DNA of 63,882 nucleotides, filler included, from Candidatus Woesearchaeota archaeon (GTDB lineage Archaea; Nanobdellota; Nanobdellia; Woesearchaeales; BM511), in the NCBI GenBank assembly GCA_023266675.1. It is 6 parts of 6 records of this genome, joined end to end, with 100 filler letters (N's around TTAATTAATTAA, not from the genome) between each part and the next. Parts side by side here need not be neighbours in the genome. Positions count along the whole stretch, not along the records: positions 1 to 21,213 come from JAHFPP010000017.1; 5 more parts are not named here. The stretch is one strand, 5' to 3'. Shown here one piece after another: positions 8,323-18,143 of this stretch. Below the pieces are notes generated by a model. The model worked only from the letters and a program-made list of their open reading frames with translations, was not told the origin of the DNA and did not search any database. The position numbers were made by a program, and so were the translations under genes. How positions within the stretch are numbered: the first letter of the stretch is position 1; the number at the start of each line of letters is the position of its first letter.

Positions 8323-11300
8323 ATGGCAGAGATTGATCATATTGCAATACAGGAGAAATGGCAGAAGCGTTGGAATGATGCCAAATTATTCAAAGCAGTT
8401 CTAGACAAGTCCAAGCCGAAATTCTACTGCCTTGAGATGTTTCCTTACCCTTCAGGCTCAGGCCTTCACATGGGGCACGCCTTCAACTACACAATTGGAG
8501 ATGTATACTCTCGATTTAAGAGAATGAATGGGTTTAATGTTCTTTATCCAATGGGGTATGATTCTTTTGGATTACCAGCTGAAAACGCTGCAATAAAAGC
8601 AAAAAGCCACCCAAGAAAATTCACTGAAGAGGCAATCCAGAATTTCATAAAACAGCAAAAAGCGCTAGGCCTCTCATATGACTGGGACAGGATGCTTATG
8701 ACGCACAGCGAAGAATACTATAAATGGAACCAGTCAATATTTATCAAGCTTTTTGAAAACGACATGGTTTACAAAAAGAAGGCGTCAGTAAACTGGTGCC
8801 AAAAATGCGACACGGTGCTCGCCAATGAGCAGGTACATGACGGATGCTGCTGGAGACACCCTGAAGATGAGATTCAGATAAGACAGCTTGAGCAGTGGTT
8901 TATCAAGACAACAAAGTACGCTGAAGAACTTCTTACAGATCTTGAAAAAATTGATTGGCCTAAAAGAATAAAAATTATGCAGGAAAACTGGATAAGCAAA
9001 AGCTTTGGAACAGAAATAGAGTTTGAAATTGAAGAGAACACTAATTTTGTCTTATTGCATGGATACAACGGATCAGTAAAAAAAGATTTTTTTCCATATC
9101 TAAAAACCGAGCTTGAAAAAAGAGGGAAAAAAGTAAGCGCAAAAGACCTTCCAAACACGTCAGACCCTAACGTTGCAGAACAGGTTGAGTTTGTATTAAA
9201 GAATAATCATTTTGATGAAAACACAGTTTTAGTCGGTCACAGTCTTGGCACAATTATCTCATTAAAAGTACTTGAAAAAATTCAAAAACCAATAAAAAAA
9301 TTAGTGCTTGCAGGCGGATTTTTAACACCTGATTTCAAGGACAATAAAAAACGTGATTTTACAGATAAATTTGACTTTAAGTTTGATTTTGAAAAAATAA
9401 AACGTAACGTGAATGAAATAGTAATCTTAAGCGACAAGAATGATTACGTTATACCACTAGAACAAGGACATAAATTAAAAGAGAAAATTAATGGTGATTT
9501 AATTGAAACAACAGCAAAAATTCCTCATTTCAAAGCTGAACATGAACCTGATGTATTAAACGCGTGTCTAAAAAAGTGGAAAATATTTACAACACGACCG
9601 GATACGATATACGGAGTCACATTCATGGTTATCTCAGCGCAACACCAAAAACTCATGTCTTTAGTGACAAAAGAACAGAAGAATGAAGTTGAGGAGTTTC
9701 TTAAAAAAATAAAGTCCACAAGCGAAAAAGACACAGAGGAACTCGAGAAAGAAGGCGCATTCACAGGTTCATATGCAACAAACCCATTAACCGGAGATAA
9801 AGTTCCAATATACGCAGGAAACTTTGTTGTAGCAGACTATGGTTCTGGAATGGTTATGGCAGTGCCAGCGCATGATCAAAGAGACTACGAGTTTGCAAAA
9901 AAATATAGCATACCAATTAAAGTTGTTATAAATCCAAATGACAATAAAATAGACAAAAACAACCTTCTAAAAGCGTACATTGAAGACGGATACGTCATTA
10001 ACTCCAGAGAATTTTCAGGGTTAAACAATGAACTTGCAAAAGACAAGGTAACAGAATACCTGGAATCAAAAAACTTAGGGAAAAAAACAGTTCAATACAA
10101 ACTACGAGACTGGCTCATATCACGACAAAGATATTGGGGAACGCCAATACCAATGATTTACTGCGGCAAATGCGGAATAGTCGCTGCAAAAATAGACGAC
10201 TTACCAATCAAGCTTCCTGAAGACATAATTTTTGGCGAAGGAAACCCTATACTTTCATCAAAACATTTCTTAAAAACAAGATGTCCAAAATGCAATAGTG
10301 ATGCACGCCGCGAAACAGACACAATGGACACATTCTTTGACAGCTCATGGTACTACTTAAGATATACTGATGCAAAAAATCAGAATGAAATGTTTGACAG
10401 AGAACAGGTTGACTACTGGCTCCCAGTTGATCAATATATCGGCGGAGCAGAGCATGCATGCATGCATCTTGTATATGCAAGATTCTTCACTAAAGCACTC
10501 CGGGATTTAGGATACCTCTCATTTGACGAACCATTCTTAAAATTATTCAATCAGGGAATGCTTCACGGATACGATGGCTTTGTCATGTCTAAATCACGAG
10601 GAAACGTTGTGCTTCCTGAAACGATATCAGAAAAATACGGAATAGACACAGCAAGATTTTTTCTTTTGTCAATAGCAAGCCCTGACAAAGACATTGAATG
10701 GAGCGACAAGGGAATTGAGGGAAGCTACAGATTTATAAAATCAGTTTTCTCATATTTTGAAAGTGTAAAAATAGGCGTTTCTCAGAAGAGGACTGTAAGC
10801 AAGCTTAACAGAACAATAAAAGAGATGACAATCGATATTGAGGAATTTAAATACAATCTTGCCATAATTAAGCTAAGAATGCTTTTTGAATCATTAAAAA
10901 GCGAAGAAAGCAAGGATTCACTTGAGAAATTCTTAATGCTTTTGCATCCTATATGCCCTCACATAACTGAAGAATTATGGGAAAGCATTGGTAATAAAAC
11001 TTTTCTAACAACAACTCCGTGGCCAAAATGCGATGAATCAAAAATAGATGACAGGGAAGAGTTTATGGAGCAGATAGAAATGACTGTTAAGTCAGACATA
11101 AACACGGTTCTTTCGCTTGCAAAAATCACAGAGCCAAAAAAGATAACAATAATAATTTCACAAGAATGGAAGTACAGCTTCTTAAGTCGCCTTAAGGAGA
11201 AAATTGATGAAACAAGAGATTTCAGGGAGCTTATGATGCACGTGCTTCTTGATGAAACGCTTAAAAAACACGCACAGAATATACAAAAAATAATACCAAA

Positions 11301-11493
11301 TGTCCTTAAGGATCCAAAGAAGATTCCGCCAGTGATGCTTGACCAGCATAGCGAGAAAAAAACGCTTGAGCAGATAAAAGATGTGCTGAAAAACGAATTT
11401 AAAACTGAAATTGAAATAGTTGTTGCCGAAGAATCAACGCACGCAAAGGCACAAGCGTCTATGCCTAGTAAACCTGCAATTGTTATAGAATAA
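8323..11493 (+). CDS. leuS: Leucine--tRNA ligase with inserted YdeN/RBBP9-like alpha/beta hydrolase domain
   Basis: MFPYPSG, HMGH (HIGH), FTTRPDT, MAVPAHDQRD, DWLISRQRYWG, MSKS; insert LLHGY..VGHSLG..ND..H. Confidence 0.96.
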   Translation: MAEIDHIAIQEKWQKRWNDAKLFKAVLDKSKPKFYCLEMFPYPSGSGLHMGHAFNYTIGDVYSRFKRMNGFNVLYPMGYDSFGLPAENAAIKAKSHPRKFTEEAIQNFIKQQKALGLSYDWDRMLMTHSEEYYKWNQSIFIKLFENDMVYKKKASVNWCQKCDTVLANEQVHDGCCWRHPEDEIQIRQLEQWFIKTTKYAEELLTDLEKIDWPKRIKIMQENWISKSFGTEIEFEIEENTNFVLLHGYNGSVKKDFFPYLKTELEKRGKKVSAKDLPNTSDPNVAEQVEFVLKNNHFDENTVLVGHSLGTIISLKVLEKIQKPIKKLVLAGGFLTPDFKDNKKRDFTDKFDFKFDFEKIKRNVNEIVILSDKNDYVIPLEQGHKLKEKINGDLIETTAKIPHFKAEHEPDVLNACLKKWKIFTTRPDTIYGVTFMVISAQHQKLMSLVTKEQKNEVEEFLKKIKSTSEKDTEELEKEGAFTGSYATNPLTGDKVPIYAGNFVVADYGSGMVMAVPAHDQRDYEFAKKYSIPIKVVINPNDNKIDKNNLLKAYIEDGYVINSREFSGLNNELAKDKVTEYLESKNLGKKTVQYKLRDWLISRQRYWGTPIPMIYCGKCGIVAAKIDDLPIKLPEDIIFGEGNPILSSKHFLKTRCPKCNSDARRETDTMDTFFDSSWYYLRYTDAKNQNEMFDREQVDYWLPVDQYIGGAEHACMHLVYARFFTKALRDLGYLSFDEPFLKLFNQGMLHGYDGFVMSKSRGNVVLPETISEKYGIDTARFFLLSIASPDKDIEWSDKGIEGSYRFIKSVFSYFESVKIGVSQKRTVSKLNRTIKEMTIDIEEFKYNLAIIKLRMLFESLKSEESKDSLEKFLMLLHPICPHITEELWESIGNKTFLTTTPWPKCDESKIDDREEFMEQIEMTVKSDINTVLSLAKITEPKKITIIISQEWKYSFLSRLKEKIDETRDFRELMMHVLLDETLKKHAQNIQKIIPNVLKDPKKIPPVMLDQHSEKKTLEQIKDVLKNEFKTEIEIVVAEESTHAKAQASMPSKPAIVIE

Positions 11494-13638: not shown

Positions 13639-14340
13639 ATGAAAAAGGAAATATCCATTTTATTCACATTCTTATTCTTAATCAACTCATGCATTGCAGC
13701 AACTATTCACGGCACAATATATGACATCAATCTAAATAAGGTTAAAGATGCAATTGTTGAAGTTAACTCAGAACCAAATCAAAGAATGGTGTCATTTGAC
13801 GGCACATATTCATTTAATCTTCCTGTCGGAAACTATGAATTATATGCATATTACGGAGAAAAAAATAACCTTCAAAAAACAAAAGACAATATATCAATTA
13901 ACAATGATGGAACTTTTGTTTATGATTTATTCCTATATTATGATATTATAGGTGAAGAAAGTATTCTAAACAGTTCAGAACTTAATTTTTATGCTCCATA
14001 CAATGAAAATATTAACTATACACTTATTTTTATTATATCTCTAATTGCCTTACTTATTGTTTTTATTATCTTTAAAAATCTAAGTAAAAAAAACAAAGCT
14101 TTAATCCATACATTAAAACAAAAAGAAGAAAAAATATTTTCTGATGACAATGAACTGAATAAAGTTATTTTGATATTAAAAGAACACGGTGGACGCGCAA
14201 CTCAGAAAGAAATAAGAAGAAATATACCCTTATCTGAGGCAAAGATATCACTTATGATAGCAGAGCTTGAATCGGAAGGAAAAATAAAAAAAATAAAGAA
14301 AGGAAGGGGAAACATCATCGTTTTAGAGAATAACCATTAA
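13639..14340 (+). CDS. Membrane-anchored winged-helix protein (COG2512-like) with extracellular beta-sandwich domain
   Basis: Signal peptide, GTYSFNLPVGNYEL, TM helix, GGRATQKEI..LSEAKISLMIAELESEGKIKKIKKGRGN. Confidence 0.8.
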   Translation: MKKEISILFTFLFLINSCIAATIHGTIYDINLNKVKDAIVEVNSEPNQRMVSFDGTYSFNLPVGNYELYAYYGEKNNLQKTKDNISINNDGTFVYDLFLYYDIIGEESILNSSELNFYAPYNENINYTLIFIISLIALLIVFIIFKNLSKKNKALIHTLKQKEEKIFSDDNELNKVILILKEHGGRATQKEIRRNIPLSEAKISLMIAELESEGKIKKIKKGRGNIIVLENNH

Positions 14341-14389
14341 AAAGATACTTTTAAATATTGGTTTTGTTAAAATTAGGCATGGGTATGAA

Positions 14390-14698
14390 ATGACTGAAAA
14401 AGAAGAGATTCAGGATATAGAAAAAAGAGAATTCATAAAGCGAGGATTAATCACGCTTGGCGTTGCAGGAACTGCAGCTATTTTAAGTAAAGTTGAGTTT
14501 GTCTCTGCAGAAAGAAGGTCTTTGGCTCCAATTACACCAGCATCTGGCGGAACTGGTAACGCGTTTACAAAGTTTACTGGACCAACTACAACTGAGAAAA
14601 CTTTTACTTTGCCTGATGCAAACGCAACAATATTGACTACAACAACAGGGGCTACCAACAGCAAAGCCATAGCTATGTCTATACTTTTTGGCTGGTGA
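14390..14698 (+). CDS. Tat-like signal peptide fused to phage tail-fibre-like short protein
   Basis: EKREFIK + hydrophobic + VSA; GGTG, TFTLPDANATI, C-terminal KAIAMSILFG. Confidence 0.7.
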   Translation: MTEKEEIQDIEKREFIKRGLITLGVAGTAAILSKVEFVSAERRSLAPITPASGGTGNAFTKFTGPTTTEKTFTLPDANATILTTTTGATNSKAIAMSILFGW

Positions 14699-14702
14699 AT
14701 AG

Positions 14703-15074
14703 ATGTCAAATCCAAACATAGTTGGTATTACAACCATTAATGGTGTAACTACATATGTTATTCCATCAAACACTTCTCTCACATCTTTACTTTCAAACGC
14801 TAATAGCTCTGGGCACGTTTACAAAGTAAACAGCATCATAGCATCTAATGTAACGGCGAGCGCTGCAACTGTAACTGTTGCTATATATACTCAGGCTGCT
14901 TTAGCAGGAACAGCAAACAGGCTTGCATATCAGATAAGCGTGCCAGGAAATGCATCCTTAATAATAACTGACAAATCAACAACATTCTACCTAATGGAAA
15001 ACCAGTCAATAGGAGTAACATCTGGAACATCGTCTGCAATTGAATACGTAATCAGCTACGAGGACATCTCATAA
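14703..15074 (+). CDS. Phage-like structural/tail-associated protein
   Basis: MSNPNIV..VYKVNSIIASNV..ISVPGNASLII.DK..FYLMEN..ISYEDIS, resembling proteins I recognise from tailed-phage genomes. Confidence 0.65.
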   Translation: MSNPNIVGITTINGVTTYVIPSNTSLTSLLSNANSSGHVYKVNSIIASNVTASAATVTVAIYTQAALAGTANRLAYQISVPGNASLIITDKSTTFYLMENQSIGVTSGTSSAIEYVISYEDIS

Positions 15075-17059
15075 TGGATTATCAAGGCAATATAATAACT
15101 TCAAACCCAACAGCGCCAACAACAACATCAGCTCAAGGTATCTGGACGCTTTCAGAAGCTATAAGATTCATCAAATCAGGCACATGGCCGACAGGAATAT
15201 GCGTTGAGGACGTGTTTAACGCGTATACATATTGGGGTAATGGGGCAACTCAGTCTATTACTACAGGAGTCAACATTTCCGGTAGAGGCGGGATGGTTTG
15301 GATTAAGGGACGGGGATATACATATGTTCATGACCTATTTGATACGGTAAGAGACACAACGAATTTTGTTCAGACTCACTCTACCGGAGCGCAAGGCAGC
15401 GATAGTAATTCTCTAACGGCATTTAGTAGCACCGGATTTAGCCTTGGGTCTTGGGCGCACGTTAATGCTGCGGGAAGTGGTGACAACGGCTTTGTTGCAT
15501 GGTCTTTTGCACAAGCACCAAATTTTTTCAATGTGGCACAAGCAACGGTTTCTGGTGGAGTTACTGCAACTGTTGATTTATCTAATCTTGGTACTGTGGG
15601 GATGGTCGCTGTTAAGAGAACAGACTCAACATCTGCTTGGTTTGTCTATCACAGGTCTTGTACAAGTGGCAAATTACTTTATTTTAACACTACTGACAAT
15701 GAAACTACTGATGGTTCAGTCACACTATCAGGAACTACGCTTTCTCTTGTTGGCGGAACGATAGCGAATGGCACTTATATTGTTTATGCGTGGGCGCATG
15801 ATACGAGCAGTACAGGGATGATTCAGTGCGGAACATTCACAACGAATGGGAGTAGTGTTGGATCAGTGACTCTTGGATGGGAGCCACAATTTTTACTTTT
15901 CAAAGAGAAAGTCACTATTACTGATAATTGGCAGATTTTTGATATGACAAGAGGGTTAAATAATACATCACTCACATACTTAAAAGCGAATTCAACAGCA
16001 GTAGAGTTTACTACTTCTGCAGCTGACTATCTGCATCCAACTGCTACAGGATTTGCTTCTCAAAATGGATTTCTGGATAACAATGGGACTTATGTTTACC
16101 TCGCAATTCGCCGCGGTCCGATGAGATTACCAACAGTAGGGACACAGGTTTATAACGCGATTGCGAGAAATGGTACTGGCGCTGCCGCTACAGTGACAGG
16201 AGTCGGGTTTCCACCAGATTTATCTATTACTCTTGCTAGAACAAATGGCATTGGAGCCCAAGGTGATTTTATTGATAGATTACGAGGTAGCGGTGTGCAG
16301 TTAACTTCGGCAGAAGCTCATGCAGAGTATGCAAATGCTACTGCTATAACCTCATTTGATATGGATGGTGTGACGCTAGGTACTGATGGGCTTGCTAATG
16401 TAAATTACAATACTAAAACTTTTATCAATTGGTATTTACGTCGATATCCGGGTGTGTTTGATATGGTATGTTATACTGGGACAGGGTCAGCACACGTGGT
16501 ATCTCACAATTTAGGTGCTGTACCTGAGTTGATGATTGTCAAGACTAGGGCTTCGACTTATAATTGGTTTGTCTACTCTTCGGCTACTGGAAATACTAAA
16601 TACATGGGGCTGAATGTTACTGATCGCGCAGAAGTTTTATCTACTATTTGGAATGATACGACACCGACATCTACTGGATTTACTATTGGAACCAATGTTG
16701 TTGTAAATACCAACGGGGATGCATATGTCGCCTACCTATTCGCCACTCTCGCAGGAATCTCCAAGGTAGGTTCCTATACTGGCAACGGTTCATCTCAAAC
16801 TCTTAATATGGGTTTTTCTGCAGGCGCAAGATTCTTCATGTGCAAGAGAACTGATGACACTGGCGATTGGTTTGTATGGGATTCTGTTCGCGGAATAAAC
16901 GCAGGAAATGACCCTCACTTGTCTTTGAACACAACAGCTGCAGAAGTAAATACAACAGATGATGTTGACGCAGACAACTCAGGTATCATTGTTAATGAAA
17001 ACGCAACAACACATATCAATGTTAATAACGCAACGTATATTTATCTGAGTTTCTCATAA
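15074..17059 (+). CDS. Phage virion-like repeat protein (DUF7483-like, YTGNG/WxVYH repeats)
   Basis: GIWTL..GTWP N-terminus; repeated YWGNG/YTGTG/YTGNG, GMVWIK, PELMIVK, WFVYH, YVAYLFA, YIYLSF. Confidence 0.75.
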   Translation: MDYQGNIITSNPTAPTTTSAQGIWTLSEAIRFIKSGTWPTGICVEDVFNAYTYWGNGATQSITTGVNISGRGGMVWIKGRGYTYVHDLFDTVRDTTNFVQTHSTGAQGSDSNSLTAFSSTGFSLGSWAHVNAAGSGDNGFVAWSFAQAPNFFNVAQATVSGGVTATVDLSNLGTVGMVAVKRTDSTSAWFVYHRSCTSGKLLYFNTTDNETTDGSVTLSGTTLSLVGGTIANGTYIVYAWAHDTSSTGMIQCGTFTTNGSSVGSVTLGWEPQFLLFKEKVTITDNWQIFDMTRGLNNTSLTYLKANSTAVEFTTSAADYLHPTATGFASQNGFLDNNGTYVYLAIRRGPMRLPTVGTQVYNAIARNGTGAAATVTGVGFPPDLSITLARTNGIGAQGDFIDRLRGSGVQLTSAEAHAEYANATAITSFDMDGVTLGTDGLANVNYNTKTFINWYLRRYPGVFDMVCYTGTGSAHVVSHNLGAVPELMIVKTRASTYNWFVYSSATGNTKYMGLNVTDRAEVLSTIWNDTTPTSTGFTIGTNVVVNTNGDAYVAYLFATLAGISKVGSYTGNGSSQTLNMGFSAGARFFMCKRTDDTGDWFVWDSVRGINAGNDPHLSLNTTAAEVNTTDDVDADNSGIIVNENATTHINVNNATYIYLSFS

Positions 17060-17298: not shown

Positions 17299-17386
17299 GC
17301 CCTTGTAGCATAGTAGCTATTGCGGCTGATTCGTATATGAAATTCGAGAAATCAGCAGGTCAGGAGTGCAACTCTCCTCAAGGGCT
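17299..17386 (+). tRNA. tRNA-Thr(CGT) with 15-nt intron at 37/38 (17336-17350)
   Basis: GCCCTTG/CAAGGGC acceptor, GCTGA-TT-CGT-A^A-TCAGC, BHB TTCG/CGAG; T-loop variant TGCAACT. Confidence 0.88.
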
Positions 17387-17521
17387 TATTTTATAAATTT
17401 CTTTTTTGAAATTTGTTATATTTTTGCTCAAGCCACAAGAAAACATTTTTGTTTTCTGTGCGCAGAAAATCTTTTCTGATTTTCTTGCGTTTTTCTCAAA
17501 AAGGTTGCTCCTCAAGGGCTT
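17374..17521 (+). repeat. Repeat element with nested double-hairpin, flanked by 14-bp duplication of the tRNA-Thr 3' end
   Basis: CTCCTCAAGGGCTT at 17374-17387 and 17508-17521; TTTTTGCTCAAGC[insert 17434-17490]TTTTCTCAAAAAGGTTG. Confidence 0.85.
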
Positions 17522-17524
17522 TTT

Positions 17525-18001
17525 TTATTTTATAAATCTTATCTTGTTTGTAAGGCCAAATCTTTCTTTTACAATAAGATTTTTTCTTTCAAGTGATGCA
17601 AGAAGTCTTGTTGTTTTAACTTTGGAAATTCCAAGATTTCGCACCAATTTATTCTGAAGAATTTCACCTTTGTTATCCTTTAGAGATAAAATGACTTTTT
17701 TTTCATCATCTTTTAGAAATGGTATGACTAAGTCATAGCTATTTTTTTCATTATTCATCTTAAAAACATTATTATCTTTGTCTGAGTTATAAAAAACATA
17801 GGTTATTGCGCCGCCTATAAAAAATGATGTCATGGCAATTATAATCACTTTTGTCAGCGTAAAATAATTAGAACTTGTAGTTACTTCCTGTCCGGTTTCT
17901 AATACTATCTGTATGGCTTGAGAATTCAGCATGTTTATGGCAAATACAACAATGGATGAAATAAGCAGAACCATGGCGATAACCAGTTTAAATTGTTTCA
18001 T
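17525..18001 (-). CDS. Membrane-anchored winged-helix protein (COG2512-like), 2 TM
   Basis: Two TM helices then FLKDDEKKV..GEILQNKLV..SKVKTTRLLASLERKNLIVKERFGLTN; ATG at 18001 preferred (TATA upstream). Confidence 0.8.
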   Translation of the reverse strand: MKQFKLVIAMVLLISSIVVFAINMLNSQAIQIVLETGQEVTTSSNYFTLTKVIIIAMTSFFIGGAITYVFYNSDKDNNVFKMNNEKNSYDLVIPFLKDDEKKVILSLKDNKGEILQNKLVRNLGISKVKTTRLLASLERKNLIVKERFGLTNKIRFIK

Positions 18002-18143
18002 TTTACAATAATTATTGGGATTATATATAAAAACCTTAGTTATTGGTATGTATTTGTTTGATTTCATTAAAATGAAACCAGTTTCAGGAAAGATATATAT
18101 GTCGTTTCATCTTTATTAATGTATATTTAAAATAGAGAATAAG

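Follow-up and report, generated by a model that had tools for sequence, protein, structure and literature searches.

The locus described here raises the question of why three genes resembling the tail-fibre module of a bacteriophage, the first of which opens with an export-type leader, are found in the genome of a Candidatus Woesearchaeota archaeon (assembly GCA_023266675.1). Little is known of how DPANN archaea find and keep hold of partner cells, and candidate molecules are few; the cassette formed by genes 1, 2, and 3 is a small, defined gene set that offers a testable candidate for how such cells grip partners. The window, i.e., the whole stretch of DNA analysed (63,882 nucleotides (nt)), consists of six contigs of this one assembly (C52, C55, C56, C59, C60, and C78) joined by 450 N; distances across the contig joins are meaningless. 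Positions 1–21213 of the window correspond to contig C52, which contains the cassette. The assembly totals 1.22 Mb in 83 contigs, with a completeness of 95.9% and a contamination of 0.9%. The data are best read as showing a cassette that is now part of the archaeon's own chromosome and is maintained by selection, as a resident and not as a provirus. As to its use, we lean, by a small degree, towards a phage fibre module that was taken over by the cell and is exported through twin-arginine translocation (Tat), with the products of genes 2 and 3 carried along.

Genes 1 and 2 are separated by 4 nt (14699–14702), and the stop codon of gene 2 and the start codon of gene 3 have one base in common (TAATG). 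The open reading frame (ORF) listing thus agrees with a sequence-only reading of this DNA, which had described three tightly coupled genes. The motifs quoted in that reading are all present, with two corrections: the C-terminus of gene 1 reads KAIAMSILFGW, which extends the quoted motif by one residue, and YTGNG occurs in gene 3 in one exact copy (at about amino acid (aa) 568), accompanied by the variants YWGNG and YTGTG. The likeness to aquatic tailed phages proposed in that reading was borne out by DUF7483 and PHROG matches, phage records, and the gene order of the DSL-LC04 phage and of an IMG/VR locus (L005). The K-R (lysine–arginine) Tat-like start of gene 1 and the lack of signals on genes 2 and 3 were also seen again on reading the sequences, and the absence of capsid, terminase, and integrase genes nearby stood when 56 ORFs of the window were scanned for these families.

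Aquatic tailed phages build the module from three parts: a fibre with KxxAMxxxFG at its C-terminus, a jelly-roll protein of 123 aa, and a distal protein whose N-terminus carries GxWxL..WP. The archaeal cassette has the same gene order and tight coupling as this module (DSL-LC04, OR003939, proteins WJZ48130–WJZ48128; IMG/VR UViG_3300044633_000282; gp41 of the Roseobacter phage CRP-1), and it also shares the fibre end, the jelly roll, the GxWxL..WP segment, and the DUF7483 body. In the phages, the first protein is a fibre of 216–644 aa with a virion-side N-terminus and no leader, encoded among tail genes, whereas the archaeal first protein has 102 aa and an export-type leader, and its gene has cellular neighbours. 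Judged by these comparisons, the cassette appears to hold as a receptor-binding fibre module of tailed-phage origin.

Gene 1 encodes a fibre cut to a 62-residue stub, in which the virion-proximal part is replaced by a 40-residue leader. Its middle motif is common to three metagenome proteins. Over roughly its final 45 residues, the protein can be aligned with the C-terminal part of the DSL-LC04 fibre that precedes the gene 2 homologue, and both C-termini read K-[AS]-I-A-M-[SA]-[IM]-[LI]-F-G; the C-terminal motif is also present on a 644-aa fibre of L005. The whole gene 1 had zero matches in 50,697 phage records, and among 37 pattern matches in IMG/VR no relative of the leader was confirmed; the phage fibres are long and have other N-termini. 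Apparently, the leader is absent from the phage versions, as had been supposed.

The gene 2 protein begins with MSNPNIV, ends with ISYEDIS, and has no signal peptide. It is 52% identical to the “putative lectin” of DSL-LC04 and 61% identical to the L005 copy. E ≤ 0.001 was passed by 251 of 294 candidate homologues; no Pfam family was found for the protein, and a single-sequence search of genome contigs returned nothing. The AlphaFold2 (AF2) model is a jelly roll with a predicted local distance difference test (pLDDT) score of 93.9. A comparison with BFVD revealed 158 predicted viral structures at E ≤ 0.001 with a top template modelling (TM) score of 0.93, several of which are cyanophage proteins named virion structural protein. 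Matches in the PDB were weak jelly rolls with a TM of about 0.5 (KHP40 cement protein and Ena spore-appendage subunits) and were rejected.

The gene 3 protein starts with MDYQGNI and carries GIWTL at aa 22–26 and WP at aa 38–39. It matches Pfam DUF7483 in two stretches (6e-85, 285.7 bits, gathering cut-off 27 bits) and PHROG virion structural and tail-fibre families (1.8e-80 and 8.9e-64). Of the 50,697 phage records, 63 matched, mostly those of Pelagibacter, Synechococcus, and Roseobacter phages; in 36 of the 63, the match spans 80% or more of the protein. The best match is CRP-1 gp41, situated among tail genes, with 38.9% identity over 94% of the query. In a large protein collection, 7047 of 8000 scored candidates pass E ≤ 1e-10. 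Three relatives with 50–60% identity (P0176, P0185, and P0270) are named as proteins of Patescibacteria or unclassified-bacterium metagenome-assembled genomes (MAGs), and one of them is encoded on a contig of 176 kb; this fibre family may thus also be present in small symbiotic bacteria. The AF2 model has a pLDDT of 87.9, and a Foldseek search of the PDB gave no convincing match, all TM values being under 0.2. The best VIA-align result over 48,161 chains (Z 5.5, phage fibre and tailspike tip domains) is below the level that the tool treats as meaningful, and the weak resemblance of one gene 3 domain to the fibre tips of phages and pyocins amounts to a common beta-sandwich and nothing further.

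The N-terminus of gene 3 is 36% identical over 55 aa to the product of the next gene of DSL-LC04. In both DSL-LC04 and L005, the gene after the jelly roll opens with a gene 3-like segment of approximately 45 residues, which is followed by unrelated binding domains. Phages thus have a conserved junction, made up of the fibre end, the jelly roll, and the N-terminus of the distal protein, to which different binding heads are added. The archaeal cassette keeps this junction intact. The first 40 residues of gene 3 are disordered in the monomer model (pLDDT < 50) and would serve as a docking segment.

A small gene matching PHROG 7759 (1e-33; start MSHFAKV or MAHFAEI) accompanies fibre cassettes in the archaeon, on the phage contig L005, and on a metagenome contig with a tatC gene (L040). 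The coordinates of this gene and of the other features are collected in Table 1.

Table 1. Features of the cassette, of the leader family, and of other loci. Positions refer to the window unless a contig or locus is named.
Feature	Location	Strand	Description
Gene 1	14390-14698	+	ORF, 102 aa
Gene 1 leader, aa 1-40	14390..14509	+	From alignments of own and metagenomic leaders
Gene 1 mature part, aa 41-102 and stop	14510..14698	+	GGTGNAFTKFTGPTTTEKTFTLPDANATI fibre motif; C-terminal KAIAMSILFGW
Gene 2	14703-15074	+	ORF, 123 aa
Gene 3	15074-17059	+	ORF, 661 aa
Gene 3 N-terminal segment, aa 1-40	15074..15193	+	GIWTL..WP; also conserved in distal proteins of phages, whose C-terminal domains are unrelated
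Gene 3 body, two DUF7483 repeats	15209-16111, 16148-17056 (feature 15209..17059)	+	All-beta
TATA-box-like TTTTAAATAT	14349..14358	+	32 nt 5' of the gene 1 start
Leader protein	C52, gene 1	+	102 aa
Leader protein	C26		102 aa, gene 1 type; then a gene 2 paralogue and two Gly-rich proteins
Leader proteins, adjacent pair	C2:25991-29169		544-aa S74-chaperone fibre; 513-aa protein, Gly-rich at its C-terminus and without a match in Pfam or PHROG
Leader protein	C20		593 aa, Cys/Gly-rich
Decayed sixth leader copy	C41, ahead of gene 2 and gene 3 paralogues		K-K-R-E-F-I-K-K kept, hydrophobic core lost
Pilin-type operon	C2:31740-36470
Protein with Tat-type motif	C38:2612-3142	+	S-R-R-Q-F-L-G, then L-Y-G-C resembling a lipobox
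PHROG 7759 gene	C6:7621-7968; L005:7748-8203; L040:2996-3238		Small protein
DUF7343 membrane proteins	13639-14340; 17525-18067	+; -	Winged-helix domain C-terminal
tRNA-like gene	17299-17386		ARAGORN call, 240 nt downstream of the cassette
Repeat of its last 21 nt	17508-17528		134 nt downstream, 20/21 identical
Leucyl-tRNA synthetase (LeuRS)	8323-11493	+	Insert at aa 242-397
Second fibre-like locus, C55	38761-41964	-	134-aa S74 fragment, then a 931-aa protein

The leader of gene 1 consists of an n-region (K12-R13-E-F-I-K17), a G/A-rich core (G19–S33), and a c-region (K34..V38-S39-A40). The protein starts with M..EKREFIKRG, continues with the core GLITLGVAGTAAILS, and ends its leader with KVEFVSA; a signal-peptidase cut after A40 is putative. 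Genes 2 and 3 have no hydrophobic N-terminus; the leader is on gene 1 alone, and the cassette on C26 has the same layout.

Of the 4657 open frames of at least 60 aa in the genome, exactly five contain the pattern [KR]R.F[ILV]K[KR]G; all five encode fibre-like proteins, at four loci. The cassette is not the single re-fitting event that had been proposed for it, and belongs instead to a family dispersed over at least six loci. The five leaders have a mean column identity of 74%, and the sequences downstream of them are unrelated. Between pairs of leaders, amino-acid identity is 57–90%, versus 39–72% third-position identity in conserved codons. Because the amino acids were kept while the synonymous sites diverged, the leader is under selection and was not recently copied. 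This comparison shows selection on the leader, and its nature as a sorting signal can be proposed on the same grounds. The C2 leader genes lie approximately 2.3 kb from a pilin-type operon and form with it a surface-protein island.

A search of 1.84 billion representative proteins with the leader profile revealed 21 hits at E ≤ 0.001. Sixteen of the 17 hits not belonging to this genome were read; P0023 (a repeat protein with six short stretches) and P0001 (gene 1 itself) were left out. The twin-arginine position is occupied by K-R in 14 of the 16 relatives and by R-R in two (GRRDFIKK and SRREFVKNG). All of them have a G/A-rich core and an AxA-type end (e.g., F-A-R-A, F-A-N-A, or F-V-S-A), and the final Ala is at least 90% conserved across the 21 sequences. 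Their cargo is fibre-like, repeat-rich, or weakly C1q-like (14.5 bits on L036, under the Pfam cut-off), and three relatives are encoded on one 36-kb contig. Scanning contigs from metagenomes yielded five short ones that carry true relatives. On L040, a full-length TatC gene ends 45 nt upstream of a 93-aa leader gene, after which come genes for a small protein and for a Gly-rich one, and a gene resembling PHROG 7759. The identification of TatC is based on Pfam (1.5e-40), PDB entry 4b4a (5.9e-25), and 39% identity to a TatC encoded in a genome from this order. The small protein (117 aa) was considered as a counterpart of gene 2 and rejected, having no detectable likeness to it (hhalign probability 0.4%). 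On L036 and L039, a gene for a 42-aa TatA, 75% identical to the TatA of this genome, is located between a fibre-like gene and the leader gene.

The Tat-like character of the leader is supported by the features of its family taken together, namely the KR and RR variants, the G/A-rich core, the AxA site, and the neighbouring tatC and tatA genes, all of them read from sequence. Its core, K34, and V-S-A at positions 38–40 follow the layout of Tat signals. Among 400 other genomes of the phylum, the one other hit of the leader profile is a canonical signal (SRRDFIKK) on a protein of 424 aa whose sequence suggests a radical-SAM enzyme. An alignment of the leader run against genome contigs returned Bacteroidia proteins only; by eye, these are ordinary K-R Tat-type enzyme leaders and not members of the family, and they were rejected. 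According to a published study (PMC1182353), lysine in place of either arginine of the SufI or TorA signal left transport in place, and the Salmonella TtrB signal has a natural K at the first position.

The mechanism that we favour would proceed as follows. The three proteins would fold and assemble in the cytoplasm, like phage fibres; gene 1 would then offer its leader to the Tat translocase, and the signal-less products of genes 2 and 3 would cross together with it by hitchhiker export. The DUF7483 protein would finally be displayed on the cell surface as a binding fibre. Phage fibres are made for folding and trimerising in the cytoplasm, and Tat moves folded assemblies, which would make such fibres suited to Tat and not to Sec (the general secretory pathway). 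A three-part hitchhiker complex is on record in PaoABC of E. coli, where the signal is on one of three co-encoded proteins (PMC4273604). Dependence on Tat in this cell, cleavage of the leader or its retention as an anchor, and joint export of the gene 2 and gene 3 products in a complex are all presumed in this scheme, as are the role in host attachment and the ligand that the fibre would bind. A complex prediction with gene 2, gene 3 aa 1–60, and gene 1 aa 44–102, each in a single copy though fibres are trimers, gave a score of 0.01 against a mark of 0.32, which speaks neither for nor against the complex.

Several results weigh against export by Tat or against a general role of the cassette, and the proposed phage origin with Tat export is only partly supported: it was strengthened at the level of the family and weakened by the missing tatC gene. 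The assembly contains one copy of tatA (52.6 bits); no tatC was detected in it by Pfam TatC (0 matches) or by tblastn with the L040 TatC (best E 0.84), and the tatA gene is an orphan, with known neighbours that do not include tatC. In gene 1 and its four paralogues, K-R-E-F-I-K stands where the consensus S/T-R-R-x-F-L-K has consecutive arginines. The Tat-signal models PF10518 and TIGR01409 do not recognise gene 1 (0 Pfam matches at E ≤ 1 and 0 NCBIfam matches at E ≤ 10); one of the R-R relatives (P0016) scores 12.2 bits at a cut-off of 16.7. The contigs with tat-linked relatives are only 2.9–3.7 kb in length. Should the leader be cleaved, nothing was found that would explain how the fibre is retained on the cell. 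On C41, the leader gene is lost, i.e., not all cassettes are complete. Neither the leader nor gene 2 was found in 300 genomes of the order (0/300 each), and DUF7483 was found in 0 of 40 relatives. Judging by these searches, the system is a narrow lineage trait, whose carriers elsewhere are metagenome contigs.

In the order, tatC is sporadic: it was found in 3 of 40 relatives, with tatA adjacent in each. The protein encoded on C38 has the single classical Tat-type signal detected in the assembly; it was found in a loose motif search and missed by a stricter pattern. This signal hints that the cell uses Tat and that tatC possibly falls into an assembly gap.

If the leader were not a Tat signal at all, it could be a Sec signal, an uncleaved N-terminal anchor, or a class III prepilin-type signal with a cut after K-R-G, ahead of the hydrophobic core; only the gene 1 proteins would then reach the membrane, and genes 2 and 3 would act elsewhere or take another route. 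The lack of tatC, the K-R pair in all five own leaders, and the silence of the curated models fit this possibility, as do the archaeal signal peptidase I (two matches) and the A24 prepilin peptidase encoded in the assembly, the pilin-type operon close to the C2 leader genes, and the sequence K-R-G-L, in which [KR]-G followed by hydrophobic residues would agree with the class III pattern. A class III signal has a short charged N-terminus, is cut after [KR]-G/A, and continues with about 20 strongly hydrophobic residues. The region before the supposed site of gene 1 has 19 residues and is acidic, and the Gly-rich core contains K34 and E36 within 20 residues; moreover, the supposed −1 G becomes W or S in two relatives, while the last Ala of the AxA end is at least 90% kept. 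The class III reading thus seems to fit the conservation pattern of the leader less well. Against a Sec signal, it can be noted that the core is short and Gly/Ala-rich, while neighbouring proteins of this AT-rich genome have Sec signals rich in Leu/Ile/Phe. The tat genes adjoining the relatives on L040, L036, and L039, the R-R variants, and the cross-match of the leader profile with a canonical Tat signal are likewise at odds with a leader of another kind, which we consider fairly unlikely. Export by Tat remains preferred over it.

The cassettes might also be leftovers of tailed viruses integrated in the archaeon, or misassembled phage DNA, with a viral leader and no present use. Strong phage homology, the decayed leader gene on C41, and the GC content of the cassette (0.38–0.45 versus a genome mean of 0.343) speak for this, and a tRNA-like gene is located downstream with its 3' 21 nt repeated, as at integration sites. 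This gene was called by ARAGORN with an odd anticodon and was not called by Rfam at the gathering score; the repeat of its 3' end resembles the scar of an element that integrated and was then lost, and no att-like direct repeats bracketing the cassette were found. On the other side, the HK97 capsid, TerL ATPase, portal, and sheath families, the four that were searched, have no match in the assembly, and the fibre-like genes are dispersed on at least seven contigs among housekeeping genes. C52 itself (21 kb) carries an archaeal ribosomal-protein cluster (S13, S4, S11, RpoD, L18e, L13, and S9) and LeuRS, which places the cassette within archaeal chromosomal DNA. The GC excess is confined to codon position 2, coming from Gly, Ala, and Thr codons, and third-codon GC is host-like (0.17–0.33 in the cassette versus 0.22–0.35 in host genes). 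The gene 3 copies of C52 and C41 are sisters in a FastTree phylogeny of the 120 best homologues (Shimodaira–Hasegawa-like support 99) and are both full length at 60–62% identity; since they are sisters, diverged, and intact, they point to one entry, an old duplication, and retention. Together with the purifying selection on the leader and the lack of a confirmed leader in IMG/VR or in the phage records, this makes viral remnants very unlikely. A different doubt concerns the function of exported fibres. They could act as decoys or blockers against viruses whose fibres are similar, or could, like tailocin fibres, bear a secreted activity that kills or lyses. The diverse cargo of the leaders (a fibre with an S74 chaperone, domains rich in Gly, and heads with a weak C1q likeness that falls under the Pfam cut-off) and the lack of an anchoring device for a cleaved product would be compatible with this. 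No toxin, enzyme, tube, or sheath part is linked to the cassettes, and family annotation describes the DUF7483 and LamG-type domains of phage fibres as modules of a binding type. Such uses are still less probable than a viral remnant, and a resident fibre that may attach the cell to a partner is the interpretation retained here.

A more specific form of it can be put forward as a rather improbable speculation: the archaeon and the carriers of related leaders would run a private Tat route, the only clients of which are bacteriophage-derived fibres, owing to their need to fold and trimerise in the cytoplasm. The closest gene 3 relatives are in phages of bacteria and in Patescibacteria MAGs, so the fibres may bind bacterial surface glycans and would then attach the cell to bacteria rather than to archaea.

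The leader and the cassette vary themes already known, namely Tat signals and the adoption of phage parts by cells. Like Tat signals, the leader is laid out in three parts and has an x-R-x-F-[IL]-K motif, a core of weak hydrophobicity, a c-region with a basic residue, and an AxA end; it differs from the usual ones in that K-R is the rule in its family and the cargo is a virus-derived fibre and not a cofactor enzyme. Cells are known to keep phage tail parts, including fibres, in R- and F-type pyocins, other tailocins, and contractile injection systems. Unlike tailocins, the cassette is found in an archaeal host, has no sheath match in the assembly and no tube or baseplate, and its release is proposed to occur by a signal peptide and not by lysis. 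The fibre-like “antennae” mentioned for the host cell of a DPANN co-culture (PMC11329633) are a different matter.

We found no description in the literature of Tat-led phage fibres in DPANN archaea, nor of DUF7483. What is new here is that the gene 1 leader is not a one-off but a family, together with its genome-wide count, the synonymous-site divergence, the R-R variants, and the linkage to tatC and tatA; further additions are that the gene 3 paralogues are sisters and that the system is missing from the 300 genomes of the order and the 400 of the phylum that were searched. If the proposed export is true, the range of Tat cargo would be widened from cofactor enzymes to virus-derived fibres, a natural family with K-R and not R-R as the norm would be known, and receptor-binding modules would be seen passing from viruses into cellular surface equipment.

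The immediate neighbours of the cassette are of envelope type: a secreted coiled-coil protein, two DUF7343 membrane proteins, and an ATP-binding cassette (ABC)/MacB set. The two DUF7343 proteins flank the cassette, and it is possible that they are membrane-tethered regulators. The TTTTAAATAT word upstream of gene 1 is also present upstream of the C41 and C6 cassettes; it is compatible with an archaeal TATA box and may act as a promoter. A scan for sigma-70 promoters and terminators revealed none above chance (4 sigma-70 sites versus 9.6 expected). One 222-nt contig of an RNA library maps to 15319–15537, inside gene 3, and is a weak hint of expression, as RNA libraries can hold DNA; the library sample is a possible source of this DNA, and contigs cannot show transcript ends or levels. 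Logan contigs of DNA runs leave much of 14636–16806 without cover, and the uncovered part is no finding.

Two further loci in the window can be noted. The second fibre-like locus on C55 encodes an S74 “chaperone of endosialidase” fragment and then a large protein with two Gly_rich_2 domains and a PHROG 2295 match (1.5e-94); the signal of the latter is an ordinary Leu/Ile-rich Sec-type one and not the K-R leader. The LeuRS of C52 contains an alpha/beta-hydrolase insert (Abhydrolase_1/Ser_hydrolase) ahead of its editing domain.

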